Source: an uncultured Verrucomicrobiae bacterium (GTDB taxonomy: Bacteria; Verrucomicrobiota; Verrucomicrobiia; Chthoniobacterales; UBA10450). Taken from it: a stretch of 64,000 nt of DNA. Shown piece after piece: positions 15,001 to 21,000 of the stretch (within the stretch, counting starts at the first letter, position 1; every line of letters starts with the position of its first letter). Position numbers: made by a program. The DNA is taken from positions 192,001-256,000 of the forward strand of contig CAVWPA010000003.1 in the NCBI GenBank assembly GCA_963756875.1, in the 5' to 3' direction.

Positions 15001-18000
15001 TCCTCCGAGTCGGTCACCGAAGGTCATCCCGATAAAGTTTGCGACACCATCAGCGATTACGTACTCGATGCGTGCCTGGAGCAGGACCCGCTCAGCCGCG
15101 TCGCATGCGAGACGCTGGCAAAAGGCAATCTCGTCGTGCTCGCGGGCGAAATCACCAGCAATGCAAAATTTGACTTCGAGGAGCGCATCCGCGAAGCCGT
15201 GCGCAGCATCGGCTACGTAAACACCGATTGCATTTTTCACGCGGACACATGCCGCGTTGTTTGCGAAATCACGGAGCAATCCCGCGACATCAAACAGGGC
15301 GTCGATGAAGCCGCTGCAGAGGGGAAAAGCACTGCCGAACAGGGCGCCGGCGACCAGGGCCTGATGTTCGGCTTCGCGTGCAACGAAACGCCGGAGCTTA
15401 TGCCCGCGCCGATTTCCTTCGCGCACAAACTGGGGCGCGAATTGATGCGAATGCGCAAATCCGGCGAAATCCCGTGGCTGCGACCCGACGCCAAAACACA
15501 GGTCTCGATCGAGTATGACGGCTACAAACCGGTGCGCGCCTCTGCGGTCGTGGTTTCCACGCAACATGCGGCCGACGTAAAACAAAAGGAAATTCACGAG
15601 ACGCTCATCGAGTTGCTCATCAAGAAAGTGATGCCGCCCGAATGGCTCGACGAGAAGACGATCTACTTAATCAATCCGACCGGCCGCTTCGTTACCGGCG
15701 GCCCCGAAGGCGACGCTGGAATCACGGGACGCAAAATCATTGTGGATACGTACGGCGGAATGGGACGGCACGGGGGCGGCGCGTTTTCCGGAAAGGACCC
15801 CAGTAAAGTGGACCGCAGCGCGGCGTACATGGGCCGCTGGGTAGCGAAAAATGTGGTCGCTGCCGGCCTCGCCGACCGCTGCGAAGTGCAATTCGCCTAT
15901 GCCATCGGCCATCCCGATCCCGTCAGCGTGAGCATCGACACTTTCTGCACCGGCAAGGTTGACGACGAAAAAATCGAGCGCGCCGTCCGGGAAATCTTCA
16001 ATTTCAAACCGGCCGAAATCATCAAACAGCTCAACCTGCTCCGTCCGATTTATCGCAAGACCACCAACTACGGACACTTCGGCCGGATCGACGACCTCGA
16101 TGCCATCACGTGGGAAAAAACGGACAAGGCGGACGCAATCAGGAAGGCAGTGCAGTAATCGGAGCTCTATCAGTAAAAATTTATGAGTACGACAACGACC
16201 GACTCGAAAACGAAACAAGATTTTAAAGTTCGCGACATCAATCTTGCGGACTTTGGACGAAAGGAAATTTCCATCGCGGAAAAGGAGATGCCCGGCCTGA
16301 TGGCCATCCGGGAGAAGTATGCACCGGAGAAACCGTTCGCCGGTGTCCGCATCACCGGTTCGCTCCACATGACGATCCAGACCGCCGTGTTGATCGAAAC
16401 ACTGGTCGATCTCGGCGCAAGCGTGCGCTGGGCCAGTTGCAACATTTTCTCGACCCAGGATCACGCCGCGGCGGCGATCGCGAAATCAGGCGTACCGGTT
16501 TTCGCGTGGAAAGGCGAATCGCTCGAAGAATATTGGTGGTGCACTTACCGGGCACTCTCGCATGCGGACGGCAAAGGACCGCAACTCATCGTCGATGACG
16601 GTGGCGACGCGACATTGCTCATCCACAAAGGGTACGAGATCGAAGAAGGCAGCGATTGGGCGAAAACGAAATCGGCGAACAGGGAAGAACAGGTCATCAA
16701 GGACCTGTTGCTCGAAATTCAGCGCGAAAATCCGTATCGCTGGCACGAAATCGTGAAGGGGTGGCGCGGTGTTTCCGAAGAAACAACCACCGGCGTGCAT
16801 CGTCTTTATAAGATGCACCTGGAAAACAAGCTGCTGGTTCCGGCGATCAATGTGAACGACTCGGTCACGAAGTCGAAGTTCGACAATCTTTACGGCTGCC
16901 GGCATTCGCTGGTCGATGGATTGAACCGCGCGCTCGACGTCATGATTGCCGGCAAGATCGCGGTGGTGTGCGGCTACGGCGACGTCGGCAAAGGTTGCGC
17001 GCAATCGCTGCGCGGCCAGGGGGCGCGCGTGGTCATTACCGAGATCGATCCGATCAACGCATTGCAAGCGGCGATGGAAGGCTACGAAGTCACGACCATT
17101 GAGGAAACACTCGGCCGAGGGGACATTTACATCAGCGCCACCGGCAACACCGACGTGATCACGTTCGATCACATGCAGCGGATGAAAGATCAGGCCATCG
17201 TTGCCAACATTGGCCACTTCGACAACGAGATCCAGGTGGATGCGCTCAGTTCCGCCAAGGGCGTAAAGCGCACCAACATCAAACCGCAGGTGGACAAGTA
17301 CACATTCCCGGATGGCCACGATATTTTTCTGCTCGCGGAAGGGCGTCTGGTAAATCTCGGCTGCGCCACCGGCCATCCGAGCTTCGTCATGTCGAACTCA
17401 TTTTCCAATCAGGTGCTCGCCCAGCTCGATCTTTGGAAGAATCGGGAGACGTACAAGCCCGGCGTTTACGTCCTTTCGAAGAAACTCGACGAAGAAGTTG
17501 CGCGCCTGCATCTGGGAAAAATCGGGGTCAAACTGAGCAAGCTCTCGCAAAAGCAGGCCGATTATCTCGGCGTGCCGGTCGAAGGCCCGTTCAAGTCGGA
17601 GCATTACCGCTATTAATGGTAGGGACGGCGCGCTGCGCCGTCCGGACATCGCGGCGGGATGTCCCTACCAAATAATAAGACGCGACTCCGAAAGCGTTCG
17701 CGAGCAGACGGAGCGCGTCCCTCCAACGCAATCCCCTTACAAATCGGCAGGCGATGCGCCCGCCCTACAATCTGTTCGCGTTCAGTTGAACGTTGGACGT
17801 TGAACGTCGAACGTTTCGTATGACCGAGACTTGCCGGCGCGCGCTTCTAATCGCCGGCCATGGGTCGACCGTAAACCCGGACTCGAGCGCGCCGACCCTC
17901 GCGCAGGCTGCCGAGATCCGGCGCAGGAGCATTTTTGCCGAGGTGGGATGCGCGTTTTGGAAAGAGGAACCGAGCTTGCGTGACGCGGTTTTCGCGTTCG

Positions 18001-21000
18001 ATCCCGGAGCGATCGACGAAGTTTACGTTGTGCCGAATTTCATCAGTGAAGGCTATTTCACGCAAACTGTGATCCCGCGCGAGCTGGAATTGAGCGGCCG
18101 GATCACCAGGCGCCCAGGCGGGCAGGTCTGGAAATATTGCGAGCCGGCAGGAAACCATTCGCTCGTGACCGAATTGCTGATGCAGAGAGCGCGCGAAGTT
18201 GCGCCGGGCGTCGATCCGCGCGAAGCCACGCTCCTGATTGTTGCCCATGGCACAGACTTGAACGAAAACAGCGCGGTGGCGGCCAAGCGGGAGGCGCAAA
18301 AGATCCGGGAGCTTCGCCGCTATGCGGACGTGCTCAACGTTTACATGGAAGAGCGGCCGCTGGTCGCAGACTGGAGACAATTGACCAGCACGCCAAACGT
18401 GGTGGTCGTGCCGTTCTTCATTTCAGATGGCCTGCACAGCTATGAAGATATTCCTGTGCTGCTCGGAATCGCCAGCGAAGGATCGGCAGCGGCAAATCGC
18501 AATGCGCGCGGCGAAATCTTCCGGCAGAACCCGTACAAAATCGATAATCGTTCGCTGTTTTACGCGGGCGCCATAGGGACCGATCCGCGGTTCGCCGATC
18601 TCCTGATCGAACAGGCGAGAGCCTTTGATTCCAAAGAGAAGGTTATCAAGAAAAGTTGAAATCGCGCTCGCGCTCGTTTTCTTTTCCACGACATTAGCAT
18701 CCCTGATGAAAGCCGAGACCTGCAAGAAGCTGCAAGAAATCGGAGCTTTCGCTCTTGCCGGCGGGTGCGCAAAAAAAAGTATGAAGCAGGTCGCGGAACT
18801 GATCCGCGCGGCACGCGATTATCGGTGGGTCGGCATTTACAAAATCACGAAGAAAGAATTCGTTATTCTGGCCGGCACCGGCGACGAGCCGCCGACCTAC
18901 CCACGCTTCCCGATTACGCAAGGACTGTGCGGGGCGGTGCTGGAATCAGGCAAACCAATCGTAGTGGGCGACGTGCACAAGGATCCGCGCTATCTCCCGA
19001 CCTTTCACACCACCCGCTCCGAGATCATCGTTCCGATGAGAAACGAGCACCGCCATATCCTTGGAATGATTAACGCCGAGAGTGACAAGGTGAACGCGTT
19101 TGGCGACGAAGACCGGCAATTCCTCGAACGCGCGGCCGGCCTGATTGCGCATTGCCTGGCGTAGTCGATCGCAACAGCGCGATGCCCGATTCCATCGAGC
19201 GATGTCTCGAAACAGCCCTGGCTGATTCGCTGCGGTTCGGTCAAATCCAAATACGGAAAGCGAACGGCTCGTTCGTTCTTTGTCATCGCGGCGATGAAGG
19301 CCGCAGCGATTTGCAGATTTTTCGAACTCCGGAAGACGCCGTTGAAATTGCGCGCTACGACGATGAAGGAAATTACCGTCCATTAAAGACCGCGCCGAAT
19401 CTGCGGCATGGCTGGCGATTGGAGATTGTCGATTCGGCCGCTCTACGCCGCGCACTGGACTACTTTTATCCCGGCAGACTGGCCATGTTTGCGGCCTGGC
19501 AGGAAAATCGTCTGCCCGTAACGCCGCTTCGCCAGACTTTGGATCGGCAATCCGGGATGTACCGCGTCGCCGCCAGCATTTCTGACAAGCAAATCGACGA
19601 CGTCGTCGAAACATTCTGCCGGTCGAACGGCGGCTGTCTGCGCACGATCCTGTGGAGACGCGACGAACAGGGCACCATGGCATCGACGAAGTTGCCGCCG
19701 GAGAAATTCGACCCGGCGTTCGATCAAACCAAAGCCCTGCATGGACCGCGGGCAGCAACTCCGAAAGCCTTCGCGGGCGAGGCCGCGGCTACAGCGATCC
19801 CGCTGCTTTGCCAGGAAGCGTGCAATTTGCTCGTGGCGGAATGTCGCAAAGTGGTGAAGGGCGAAACCTCGTCCAGCCTGTAGCGGCGCTCTGCCCGTCC
19901 GGCCGTAGCCATCGCGAAGGCGGATGAGCGTCGCATTCTTTGGTCCCAACAATTTGCGACGGTCATAGACCGCCGCTACAGCAGGAAAATGATTGTTCGC
20001 GCGCGCGTTGTGGTCACGATGGATGGGCCGCCGATTAAAAATGGCGCGGTGGCGATCTCGGGGAATCGAATTGTCAATGTTGGAACGTTCCCGGAAATCA
20101 AAGCGCGGCATTCCGGGGAAGAGATTCTCGATCTGGGCGAGCAGATGCTGCTGCCGGGATTGATCAACGCGCACTGTCATCTCGATTACACCTGTTTGCG
20201 CGGCAGGATCCCATTGCCAAAATCGTTCGCCGATTGGGTACGCGCCATCAATTCAGAGAAGGCGGGGCTTTCGGGAGAAGACTACGTCGCCTCGATCAAC
20301 GCAGGCTTTGCCGAGGCGAAACGCTTTGGAAGCACGACGGTGGCAAACCTGACGGCGTTTCCGGAACTGGCAGCAAAAGTTCGCGCGCCGATCCGGACCT
20401 GGTGGTTCGCAGAATTGATCGATGTGCGGAATCCCGAACGCCCAAATGAGATCGTCGATCTTGCACTCGAGTCTTTAAAAATCGCCGAGCGCCGGGGACT
20501 TGCGCCGCATGCGCTGTTCACCGCTTCGTCAAATCTGTTTCGGCGCTGCGAAGAAGTTGCCCGCGAGAAAAATGTTTTGCTGACCACGCACCTCGCGGAA
20601 TCACGCGAAGAGATGTCTATGTTTCGCGATGCAGCGGGACCGCTTTACGAATTCCTGAAGGGAATCGGGCGGGATATGAGCGACTGTGGTCATGGAACCC
20701 CACTCAAAGAATTCGTCGGACGCCTTCGCCACGGCGAATCTTTGATCGGAGAGACGTCCCTACCTGGTAATTGGATTGTCGCGCATCTAAACGAGCTTGC
20801 GGAAAGCGATTTCGATTTGCTGGCACGATCTTCGGCCAAATTTCACATCGTGCATTGCCCTCGCAGCCATGAATATTTCGGTCATTCCCGGTTTCAGTTC
20901 GAAGGATTGCGGCAGCTTGGATTCAACATTTGTCTGGGGACCGACAGCCTCGCGAGTAACGACGACCTGAGTTTGTTCGCCGAGATGCGCGCGTTCCAAC

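Follow-up and report, generated by a model that had tools for sequence, protein, structure and literature searches.

What does a tetrapyrrole chelatase gene do when it is followed by a gene for an iron-sulfur protein of the DR2241 type, and does the pair belong to a haem route that dispenses with the radical-SAM enzyme AhbC? The question is raised by a short row of genes in the window, i.e., the whole 64,000-nucleotide stretch analysed here from an uncultured Verrucomicrobiae bacterium of the order Chthoniobacterales:

17820..18659, + strand: two-domain class II chelatase of the CbiX/SirB type, 279 aa (PF01903 in two stretches, 84.2 bits; NF002671, 247 bits)
18706..19164, + strand: stand-alone GAF protein, 152 aa (PF01590, 55.8 bits)
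19182..19883, + strand: DR2241 + Fer4_23 protein, 233 aa (PF18069, 78.6 bits; PF18009, 75 bits)
19989..21224, + strand: amidohydrolase of the nucleoside-deaminase group (PF01979, 123.7 bits)

Profile matches reproduced the reading frames and families of the CbiX and DR2241/Fer4_23 genes that a first-pass annotation had placed at 17820-19883; the GAF gene at 18706-19164 between them does not appear in the visible text of that annotation. The CbiX-(GAF)-DR2241 operon is kept in 74 of the 80 nearest public loci, the remaining loci ending at a contig edge, and DR2241 lies directly 3' of CbiX in all nine loci from other families. The amidohydrolase gene is found 3' of DR2241 in 78 of the 80 public loci; in three genomes (G009, G024 and G034) DR2241 still adjoins it, and CbiX sits elsewhere. 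The observations concern the genes and domains present, their conservation, their co-occurrence and their synteny; from these we infer all enzymatic activities. The locus is rather likely to supply metal insertion to a haem route that depends on sirohaem.

We infer that CbiX (17820..18659) is a sirohydrochlorin ferrochelatase. Its H14, H143 and H206 are invariant (21 orthologues), and the gene was found in all 81 genomes of the order sample, in which genomes count as samples and kin are not independent. Each of G000, G009 and G024 has two TP_methylase genes only (SUMT-HemD and one small gene), which leaves no corrin pathway and thus argues that CbiX is not a B12 cobalt chelatase. In Paracoccus, a gene labelled cbiX has been proven to encode the sirohydrochlorin ferrochelatase of alpha-proteobacteria (PMC4063343). 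Like the protein studied here, Paracoccus CbiX is two-domain and labelled a cobalt chelatase, and it really makes sirohaem as the precursor of another haem (PMC4063343); unlike it, it has no DR2241 partner, and its product serves haem d1 and reductases rather than haem b.

The neighbouring iron-sulfur protein is predicted to be the [4Fe-4S] partner of CbiX. As had been noted earlier, it matches only PDB entry 2jh3 by sequence (residues 292-437, E 6.7e-17). A structure model (pLDDT 78) matches the same entry (Foldseek E 2e-15; VIA Z 18.4), and the fold search with this model returned no relative besides it (next Z 3.6). C156, C162, C220 and C224 (numbering from a start at 19152) are invariant in 16 sequences. 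Entry 2jh3 is DR2241 of Deinococcus radiodurans, a four-domain chelatase-like protein that shares two CbiX-like domains, DR2241 and Fer4_23 with the genes in the window; across the last two domains the identity is 28-31% and the cysteines align. Whereas Deinococcus has one protein, here there are two genes with the GAF gene in between, and 31 CbiX-DR2241 fusion proteins were found. The CbiX and DR2241 genes together represent the Deinococcus protein divided in two, the 19182..19883 gene matching its C-terminal half. The haem genes of the two organisms differ, since the Deinococcus control genome yielded classical and ChdC genes and no AhbAB match, in contrast to the AhbAB-like gene found here. 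Fe-S clusters are borne by other class II chelatases as well, namely CbiX-long of Bacillus megaterium, plant SirB and several ferrochelatases. These, too, join an ATP-independent tetrapyrrole chelatase to an Fe-S centre of unsettled role, but their cluster is carried by a short stretch appended to the chelatase and not, as predicted here, in a separate 233-aa two-domain protein. DR2241/Fer4_23 may work with CbiX as the iron-sulfur half of a DR2241-type chelatase, in a redox or regulatory role. The co-occurrence of DR2241 with ChdC over the 81 order genomes (both in 65, neither in 11, DR2241 only in four, ChdC only in one) is tighter than a pure chelatase helper would require, and this counts against the metal-insertion reading, as do the separate CbiX genes of G009, G024 and G034 and the 12 order genomes that have CbiX and NIR_SIR and no DR2241.

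The other genes that bear on the route lie outside the window:

C3:996449-997549: AhbAB-like fusion (PF17805 twice; AhbB 86 bits, cut-off 125; AhbA 54 bits, cut-off 140)
C3:858385-859206: ChdC (NF008913, 266 bits, cut-off 253)
C3:401963-406915: hemE-hemN-hemY-hemH operon (hemE 335.5, hemN 612.6, hemY 345.2 and hemH 233.9 bits)
C3:157983-159020: aldo-keto reductase (AKR), the organism's own copy

The first three had been reported by the first-pass annotation, and the profile scores bear them all out. The AhbAB-like protein scores under both NCBIfam cut-offs and aligns with NirDL (PDB 4ch7) across 307 residues, with one histidine kept per half. ChdC (E 4e-56 against Geobacillus HemQ) is over its cut-off and, judging by sequence, an ordinary Firmicutes-type family member. 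The reported lack of AhbC and AhbD also held, the best matches (42.8 and 60 bits) both being MoaA by sequence, as did that of SirC: the best PF13241 match in the source genome is HemA, and TIGR01470, used in the SirC search, matched in none of the 81 order genomes. Because the classical operon is complete, the sirohaem route is not required in this organism. That operon is, as claimed, rare among relatives: HemE is over its cut-off in only ten of the 81 order genomes and ferrochelatase occurs in those same ten, so that 71 have neither.

An AhbAB-like gene and ChdC occur together in 61 of the 81 order genomes, a count obtained with the source organism's own AhbAB protein as query, so that canonical AhbA and AhbB encoded as two genes would escape it. 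An AhbC-like/AhbD-like radical-SAM pair is present in 12 of these 61; no AhbC-like gene was found in the other 49, and 45 of the 49 are also without HemE and HemH, i.e., without the classical route. In the full sample, a full-length AhbC-like gene (314-501 bits) occurs in 17 genomes, in most of them with an AhbD-like neighbour, and the 12 that carry the pair reveal the route's canonical ancestry. NIR_SIR was not found in any of seven family genomes, nor in 18 of the 81 order genomes; 17 of these 18 keep the AhbAB-like gene, ChdC and DR2241, and sirohaem is without a cofactor client in these NIR_SIR-less genomes. Comparative genomics supports the view that, of the haem routes in the order sample, a sirohaem-dependent one ending in ChdC is the most frequent. 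The earlier proposal that an AhbC-less sirohaem route is the order's main one is thus borne out as to frequency, but the 17 genomes with an AhbC-like gene show that it is not AhbC-less throughout.

Two genomes of 0.9 Mb each (G009 and G024) keep hemA-hemC-SUMT/hemD, CbiX, DR2241, the AhbAB-like gene (66% identity), ChdC and COX1. No sulfite or nitrite reductase was found in either, and G009 has six radical-SAM genes in total, each with an assignment other than AhbC/AhbD. Since these small gene sets hold no sirohaem-using reductase, a sirohaem-dependent haem route with a deacetylation step that lacks an assigned gene is well supported.

In such a route, SUMT-HemD, encoded elsewhere in the genome, would lead to precorrin-2, and an oxidising activity without an assigned gene (SirC being absent across the order sample) would convert this to sirohydrochlorin. 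Two-domain CbiX would insert iron to give sirohaem, from which the fused AhbAB-like enzyme would take off two carboxyls; an activity without an assigned gene would then remove the two acetates of rings A and B to give coprohaem, which ChdC would turn into haem. Most of the order would thus use a sirohaem haem route without one known enzyme, and one step of haem synthesis awaits its catalyst. A non-radical-SAM enzyme had been claimed for this step; the absence of AhbC stands (49 of 61 genomes), but "non-radical-SAM" was an interpretation only, a HemW-like radical-SAM protein being kept in the small genome G009.

Haloferax volcanii makes haem by AhbA/B and AhbC, the last enzyme being ChdC (PitA) under air and AhbD in its absence (PMC5746218, PMC8305020). 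It shares with the present genomes the sirohaem route, a decarboxylase of the AhbA/B type with two fused domains, and ChdC as the last enzyme under air; a control search detected a DR2241-domain protein in its genome, and its dual set of AhbC/AhbD and ChdC is that of the 12 order genomes. In contrast to H. volcanii, which has AhbC and SirC, 49 of 61 genomes here are without an AhbC-like gene and none of 81 yielded SirC, and no ABM domain is joined to the ChdC of the present genomes. Sulfolobus acidocaldarius, Haloquadratum walsbyi and Nitrosopumilus maritimus were listed in 2010 as aerobic archaea with ahb-nirD/H and without ahb-nirJ1/J2 (PMC3004389), the same unexplained pathway gap as here. 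Control searches agree for S. acidocaldarius, in which AhbAB-like and ChdC-like genes were matched and AhbC was not. However, those cases were archaea and these are bacteria, and S. acidocaldarius is also without a detected DR2241.

For the step between AhbAB and ChdC, the conserved AKR, which tracks ChdC, is the best current candidate, either for the late step itself or as its helper, and a better lead than DR2241; that it performs the step, or is needed for it, is tenable but unlikely. Neither 0.9 Mb genome has any other AKR, and in both it lies 4 kb from the AhbAB-like gene; it occurs in 52 of the 81 order genomes (64-86% identity), all 52 with ChdC and 51 with the AhbAB-like gene, and in none of the 15 ChdC-less ones. 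A phylum sample of 151 genomes holds it only in five genomes of the same order and in all four of one other family, these four also having the AhbAB-like fusion. Its gene adjoins CbiX, AhbAB or ChdC in more than one lineage. Of the 56 family loci with room upstream, 31 have it next to CbiX in divergent orientation, and among 80 metagenome relatives it stands beside CbiX(-GAF-DR2241) in 15, with AhbAB/SUMT-HemD/HemC/HemA in nine and next to ChdC in five, flanks that are neighbourhood evidence only. Yet AKR was not found (E<=1e-60) in ten of the 61 genomes with AhbAB and ChdC, including the near-complete G054, G065, G044, G055 and G079, all without an AhbC-like gene or HemE. It is just as common where an AhbC-like gene is present (11 of 12 genomes), its matches in G059, G016 and G011 hold an internal stop, and hydride-transfer chemistry offers no obvious way to cleave a C-C bond.

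It is rather improbable that no extra enzyme is involved and that loss of the ring A/B acetates falls to ChdC, to the AhbAB-like fusion or to peroxide chemistry on the enzyme-bound iron macrocycle. AhbAB-like and ChdC genes are the sole set common to all AhbC-less cases encountered, i.e., the 49 order genomes and, by the control searches, S. acidocaldarius. Within the route, moreover, no protein is more conserved than the fusion (62-87% identity over the order; in metagenome loci 66-68%, against 32-46% for SUMT-HemD and 41-42% for HemC), and ChdC acts on propionates of the same two rings, A and B. Nevertheless, 12 genomes hold AhbC-like genes in addition to these AhbAB-like and ChdC orthologues, and the ChdC found here looks like an ordinary one of its Firmicutes-type family.

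The first-pass annotation had favoured DR2241 itself, as an oxygen-tolerant substitute for AhbC that converts didecarboxysirohaem to coprohaem. DR2241 is present in 48 of the 49 AhbC-less genomes with AhbAB and ChdC, the exception (G002) being in 710 contigs, as well as in all 12 with an AhbC-like gene, and G036, where AhbAB and AhbC-like genes occur without ChdC, gave no DR2241 match. Sirohaem does not depend on DR2241, given that 12 order genomes without it still have CbiX and NIR_SIR; it has many invariant polar residues beyond the four cysteines, and an Fe-S domain lies next to ChdC elsewhere too (ChdC-Rieske fusions in L259 and L286). Against this, its confirmed fusions (31 proteins) are only with CbiX, to which it is also translationally adjacent. 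It occurs in four order genomes without ChdC, intact in G008, G023 and G074, which are also without an AhbAB-like match; it was matched in the Deinococcus control, where AsnC_trans_reg2 was not; and it was not detected in S. acidocaldarius, with its AhbAB-like and ChdC-like matches and no AhbC (PMC3004389). The CbiX linkage, the genomes without AhbAB or ChdC and the AhbC-less Sulfolobus make it a weak candidate, and the proposal is highly doubtful.

There is a very slim chance that a radical-SAM enzyme from outside the AhbC family stands in for AhbC, the candidate being the HemW/HemN-like protein that the small genomes retain. HemN-family enzymes have tetrapyrrole substrates, and the G009 protein (TIGR00539, 262 bits, cut-off 205) is among only six radical-SAM genes; it scores, however, as an ordinary HemW, its gene shows no synteny with haem genes in the loci examined, and HemW is widespread among bacteria without a sirohaem route. 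Barely credible, finally, is a collection of relics and other roles (CbiX a cobalt chelatase, as the public label "sirohydrochlorin cobaltochelatase" of CbiX-DR2241 fusions has it, the AhbAB-like protein, under its curated cut-offs, an AsnC-type regulator, ChdC-like a haem-binding protein, and hemE-less members importing haem), given that corrin methyltransferases are absent, that the genes are kept at 52-66% identity in the 0.9 Mb genomes alongside hemA, hemC, SUMT-hemD and a haem-copper oxidase, and that AhbAB-like and ChdC genes co-occur tightly over the 81 genomes.

The amidohydrolase, a conserved neighbour downstream in the operon, is probably not a haem enzyme. Its nearest NCBIfam models are all under cut-off (TRZ/ATZ 133 bits, aminofutalosine deaminase family 121 bits), its PDB matches are 4f0r (MTA/SAH deaminase) and 2imr (DR_0824), and its orthologues, present in 63 of the 81 order genomes, do not follow the distribution of DR2241. 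The GAF gene is present in 79 of the 80 nearest public loci and absent between CbiX and DR2241 in all nine loci from other families; in this position it is restricted to the family of the source organism. Its product belongs to the free-Met-R-sulfoxide-reductase subfamily but is without the catalytic cysteine, to which a Thr is aligned in the match with PDB 3mmh (E 2.3e-13), the position being T, A or N in 19 of 19 orthologues. It may be a family-specific, sensor-like, non-catalytic ligand-binding add-on.

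Most genomes of the Chthoniobacterales, a widespread aerobic soil order, keep the first enzyme and an aerobic last enzyme of the sirohaem route to haem, while the middle one, the radical-SAM enzyme AhbC, is absent; this holds even for genomes of 0.9 Mb. Textbooks recognise three haem routes. Excerpts of a recent review present the sirohaem route as independent of oxygen and as requiring two radical-SAM enzymes, AhbC and AhbD being still the sole enzymes for their steps (Chem Rev 2026, PMC13564367). Partial sets were listed, in an excerpt of Storbeck et al. (2010; PMC3004389), for Sulfolobus acidocaldarius, Haloquadratum walsbyi and Nitrosopumilus maritimus, which carry ahb-nirD/H without ahb-nirJ1/J2, and our control searches concur with that listing for S. 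acidocaldarius. For the present order, part of a 2015 report describes a 0.9 Mb endosymbiont and a free-living relative without hemE, hemD, hemY and hemH, the "missing hem genes", for which diverged analogues were proposed (PMC4607532). Haloferax differs in that, according to excerpts of two papers, it relies on ChdC when air is present and on AhbD when it is not, and has AhbC (PMC5746218, PMC8305020). Our literature search found no paper resolving the AhbC gap or tying this phylum to the sirohaem route.

The order sample comprised 81 genomes, including the window's own (G000), with 73 at 90% completeness or more; it is a sample whose related members are not independent data points, and each absence means no match with the given query at the given threshold. 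The query for the fused sirohaem decarboxylase-type protein (AhbAB-like) was the protein of G000. The counts follow the tool tally, including G031 (AhbAB only as a 60-aa fragment containing a stop), G055 (AhbAB in two pieces) and G077 (a weak ChdC-family match).

Haem and sirohaem genes in the order sample (genomes with the gene)
HemE over the cut-off: 10/81
Ferrochelatase: 10/81, the identical set to HemE
AhbAB-like fusion, 62-87% identity: 63/81
ChdC: 66/81
DR2241: 69/81
CbiX: 81/81
Sulfite/nitrite reductase family (NIR_SIR): 63/81
SirC (TIGR01470): 0/81
AhbC-like, full-length, 314-501 bits, all under the cut-off of 650: 17/81

The AhbC search at E<=1e-25 gave no match in 63 of the 81 genomes, and an AhbD-like gene adjoins most of the AhbC-like genes that were found. 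AhbAB-like and ChdC genes occur together in 61 genomes, 12 with an AhbC-like gene and 49 without. HemE and HemH are present in four of these 49 (G000, G014, G075 and G004), which leaves 45 genomes without another recognisable route. NIR_SIR was not found in 18 genomes, among them all seven of the window's family, and 17 of the 18 carry AhbAB-like, ChdC and DR2241 genes. The distribution of the classical hemE-hemN-hemY-hemH operon is uneven: the same 10 genomes, over five families, have both HemE and ferrochelatase, which suggests that the operon was transferred, or repeatedly lost, as a unit.

The inventory of G000 (2.69 Mb, 3 contigs, completeness 87.6%) begins with a CcsA-like gene, behind which lie hemA, hemC and SUMT/hemD, the last a SUMT-HemD fusion (TIGR01469, 297 bits). 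Both an Ahb-pathway SUMT and a sirohydrochlorin chelatase gene are thus present, CbiX being the predicted chelatase. The genome additionally carries haem-copper oxidases and the AhbAB-like fusion, which contains PF17805 twice plus PF22451 and matches NirDL 4ch7 (E 1.7e-14), with scores below the NCBIfam cut-offs (86 bits vs 125, and 54 vs 140). The first-pass annotation had described ChdC and a classical operon in a genome devoid of AhbC, AhbD and SirC, and this description holds throughout. ChdC scores 266 bits with NF008913 (cut-off 253), and the operon (C3:401963-406915 in contig coordinates, L009:5964-10916 in the extracted locus; minus strand) is complete, with TIGR01464 at 335.5 bits (cut-off 303), TIGR00562 at 345, TIGR00109 at 234 and TIGR00538 at 613, so that the classical route stands alongside the sirohaem-type genes. 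The best AhbC match, at 42.8 bits, falls short of the cut-off of 650, and the best AhbD match, at 60 bits, of that of 500; for both the hit is MoaA, and ChdC is present instead of AhbD. TIGR01470 (SirC/CysG N-terminal domain, precorrin-2 dehydrogenase) finds nothing in the 81 order genomes, and PF13241 matches are weak, the best in G000 being HemA. No NIR_SIR protein was found in G000, and the presence of only two TP_methylase genes indicates that there is no corrin pathway.

The lack of SirC exposes a second gap: the order has no recognisable precorrin-2 dehydrogenase, though 63 of the 81 genomes need sirohaem for their reductases. Neither DR2241 nor the aldo-keto reductase (AKR) discussed below would fill it, as their distributions are not complementary to that of SirC, which is nowhere in the 81 genomes; genomes without DR2241 retain CbiX and NIR_SIR, and one AKR cluster (L261) has a true SirC adjoining AhbAB.

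No protein of the route is better conserved than the AhbAB-like fusion (L007:8447-9550 and relatives), with identities of 62-87% across the order and of 66-68% in metagenome loci where SUMT-HemD stands at 32-46%. AhbAB-like and ChdC genes lie among housekeeping genes in seven genomes (G000, G009, G024, G034, G059, G208 and G118), for example trpD, the CCA-adding enzyme, citrate synthase, pyrB/C, a rhomboid-like protein and gcvT, and hemB/hemL are not beside the AhbAB-like gene in G208.

Two genomes of 0.9 Mb, G009 and G024, are each one contig at 99% completeness. Both retain hemA-hemC-SUMT/hemD (families named for G009), the two-domain CbiX, DR2241 with an amidohydrolase, an AhbAB-like protein at 66% identity, ChdC and COX1, and searches of both found no NIR_SIR, HemE, ferrochelatase or AhbC-like gene. 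Each has six radical-SAM genes, which in G009 are MiaB, HemW, MqnC, MqnE, LipA and a KamA-family protein. A 317-aa radical-SAM protein of G000 with a cysteine-rich C-terminus and no family assignment (C3:760121-761071) is missing from the radical-SAM lists of these small genomes.

The three-gene CbiX/DR2241 locus in the window is real, as the first-pass annotation had it, with a middle gene that encodes a GAF protein, absent from that annotation's visible text. Its start codons are ATGs agreeing with those of orthologues.

Genes in and around the locus (window coordinates)
13886-14833, minus strand: ArsR-type regulator fused to a SAM methyltransferase, divergent, before metK-ahcY
14980-16158, plus strand: metK
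16183-17616, plus strand: ahcY
17820-18659, plus strand: two-domain CbiX (PF01903 in two stretches; two matches in one frame)
18706-19164, plus strand: GAF-domain gene
19182-19883, plus strand: DR2241+Fer4_23 gene (PF18069 78.6 bits, PF18009 75 bits)
19989-21224, plus strand: amidohydrolase
21370-22737, plus strand: sigma-54 response regulator
22880-23653, plus strand: creatininase-like gene

An Rfam scan of window positions 13500-24000 gave no match, and promoter and terminator scans gave nothing beyond chance. The nearest public loci, 80 in number, all belong to this order, so that the single contig scan showed no more distant context of DR2241; in them the arrangement CbiX > GAF > DR2241 > amidohydrolase is kept wherever the contig extends: all four genes are found in 72, the first three in 74 and the amidohydrolase in 78. 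metK-ahcY lies upstream of CbiX, as in the window, in only 3 of the 80; in relatives the AKR holds that position, which implies a rearrangement of about 50 kb in G000. In other families of the order DR2241 directly follows CbiX and GAF is absent (9/9 loci: L016-L023 and G059), and in G009, G024 and G034 DR2241 is still beside the amidohydrolase with CbiX elsewhere. The sigma-54-dependent response regulator is strongly conserved (92% identity to G014) and, at 35 of 80 related loci, comes after the amidohydrolase.

The domains of a DR2241-type chelatase are all present, namely two CbiX domains and DR2241 followed by Fer4_23 with four cysteines, encoded here not in one polypeptide but in separate genes with GAF between them. 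In line with this, NF002672, which models the fused form over 486 positions (cut-off 435), matches CbiX at 186.6 bits and the DR2241 protein at 103.5 bits, each corresponding to one half. The sole solved relative of the DR2241 protein is 2jh3 (E 6.7e-17, residues 292-437; Foldseek E 2e-15; VIA-align Z 18.4, rmsd 6.4 over 199 residues). The next-best VIA-align chain reaches only Z 3.6, so that 2jh3 is the one fold relative known for the two C-terminal domains; a bilin-reductase row in the fold search, at E 0.5, is noise. In 16 aligned orthologues the four cysteines are invariant (C-x5-C ... C-x3-C), as are H45, R76, W88, Y106, R132, Q133, M136 and Y137. When the search was confined to longer proteins, it yielded 31 fusions of the type CbiX+DR2241+Fer4_23, 436-509 aa in length, and Fe-S clusters occur on class II chelatases. 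From these fusions, the gene adjacency and the Fe-S precedents we infer that DR2241 works with CbiX.

DR2241 distribution tracks that of ChdC, with both present in 65 of the 81 genomes and neither in 11; DR2241 occurs without ChdC in four (G008, G023, G074 and G031) and ChdC without DR2241 in one (G002, 710 contigs). The 12 genomes without DR2241 all carry CbiX and NIR_SIR, which argues against DR2241 being necessary for sirohaem formation. Three observations speak against the earlier proposal that DR2241 takes the place of AhbC: an intact DR2241 is carried by three genomes with HemE and HemH and no AhbAB-like or ChdC match (G008, G023 and G074); among the controls, it matches in Deinococcus, where AsnC_trans_reg2 gives none; and it has no match in S. 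acidocaldarius.

Another lead is the AKR: in both 0.9 Mb genomes a single AKR gene is present, at a distance of 4 kb from the AhbAB-like gene. The orthologue in G000 lies outside the window.

C3:157983-159020 (L203:2984-4021): AKR, 346 aa, PF00248 162 bits

By eye, this protein has the usual Asp/Tyr/Lys/His tetrad. At E<=1e-60, the AKR is found in 52 of the 81 order genomes at 64-86% identity, accompanied by ChdC in 52/52 and by the AhbAB-like protein in 51/52, and in none of the 15 order genomes without ChdC. At the same threshold it was not found in 10 of the 61 genomes with AhbAB-like and ChdC genes (G054, G065, G002, G007, G048, G070, G044, G055, G079 and G062), and its presence in 40 of the 49 such genomes without an AhbC-like gene compares with 11 of the 12 that have one. 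In a phylum sample of 151 genomes it occurs only in five genomes of the same order and in 4/4 of one other family, which also hold the AhbAB-like fusion at 60-64% identity; the control genome G138 has neither.

Of the 56 family loci with at least 1300 nt upstream, 31 have the AKR next to CbiX in divergent orientation. Additionally, 29 of 80 metagenome loci with AKR relatives (41-89% identity) have a tetrapyrrole gene in the flank: CbiX(-GAF-DR2241) in 15, AhbAB-like/SUMT-HemD/HemC/HemA in 9 and ChdC in 5. By Pfam scan, L274 and L281 contain AhbAB-SUMT/HemD-HemC-HemB-...-AKR operons, L261 reads AKR-AhbAB-SirC, and in L259 and L286 the AKR relative is directly followed by ChdC with a C-terminal Rieske [2Fe-2S] domain (L259:6904-7983, L286:1166-2257). 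No AhbC- or AhbD-like gene was found in the 160 flanks of these loci.

Which genes and domains are present, how well they are conserved, and where they co-occur and adjoin one another was observed directly; from this we infer a route in which CbiX would put iron into sirohydrochlorin with DR2241 as its putative Fe-S partner; sirohaem, here probably an intermediate rather than a cofactor, would be decarboxylated by the AhbAB-like protein, and ChdC would act as the final enzyme. The step between, from didecarboxysirohaem to coprohaem, removes the ring A and B acetates. The known enzyme for this step uses radical chemistry. By atom count, the reaction is formally an elimination of one acetic acid per ring, and part of the 2026 review terms it oxidative (PMC13564367). 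It is conceivable that the AKR and an Fe-S module form a hypothetical redox pair for acetate removal; equally hypothetical, and likewise conceivable, is a peroxide-driven hydrogen abstraction on the same rings by ChdC. That this order and other lineages with AhbAB-like and ChdC proteins bypass radical-SAM chemistry by means of the AKR plus an Fe-S module (DR2241 here, the ChdC-fused Rieske domain in metagenome relatives) is a specific proposal that we consider rather unlikely. If it were true, the pair would be an oxygen-era counterpart of AhbC and would complete a fully aerobic sirohaem route to haem. The comparison narrows the missing-enzyme problem to a few hundred genes and, with the AKR, DR2241, and ChdC or AhbAB themselves named as candidates, makes a long-standing gap directly testable by reconstitution.

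The GAF protein belongs to the free-methionine-R-sulfoxide-reductase group (3mmh, E 2.3e-13) and lacks the catalytic cysteine, which we take to be the one in the loop before the conserved S-E-I strand: a Thr aligns with the 3mmh reductase cysteine, and the site is T, A or N in 19/19 orthologues. We read it, from its sequence, as a non-catalytic ligand-binding protein. The amidohydrolase has as its nearest relatives the MTA/SAH deaminase 4f0r and DR_0824 (2imr), at E about 1e-20, and falls below curated cut-offs (NF006269, 121 bits vs 320; NF012037, 59.6 vs 779); the aminofutalosine / MTA-SAH deaminase group is right, with scores that do not fix the substrate. In nine families this deaminase-type gene lies 3' of DR2241, also in loci that CbiX has left, and its phyletic pattern differs from that of DR2241. 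It was rejected as the missing enzyme and as an obligate partner of DR2241: its relatives are nucleoside deaminases, its orthologue was not found in seven DR2241-bearing genomes (G065, G003, G018, G008, G023, G030 and G043), and it occurs in the DR2241-less G036, G037, G071 and G002. Four apparent DR2241-amidohydrolase fusions are singletons and were treated as artefacts; the two that were read (P0002 and P0003) have lost the C-terminal CxxxC motif in a frameshift-like manner.

Two further features of the metagenome AKR loci may be recorded. In L259, the gene after ChdC-Rieske encodes a DtxR-type iron repressor that includes a FeoA domain. The operons of L274 (754-8971) and L281 (1106-12871) are long and same-strand, in the order AhbAB-like, SUMT/HemD, HemC, HemB, AKR, inorganic pyrophosphatase, a 194-234 aa protein without a Pfam family, DUF2071 and DinB_2, the last four genes being common to both loci.
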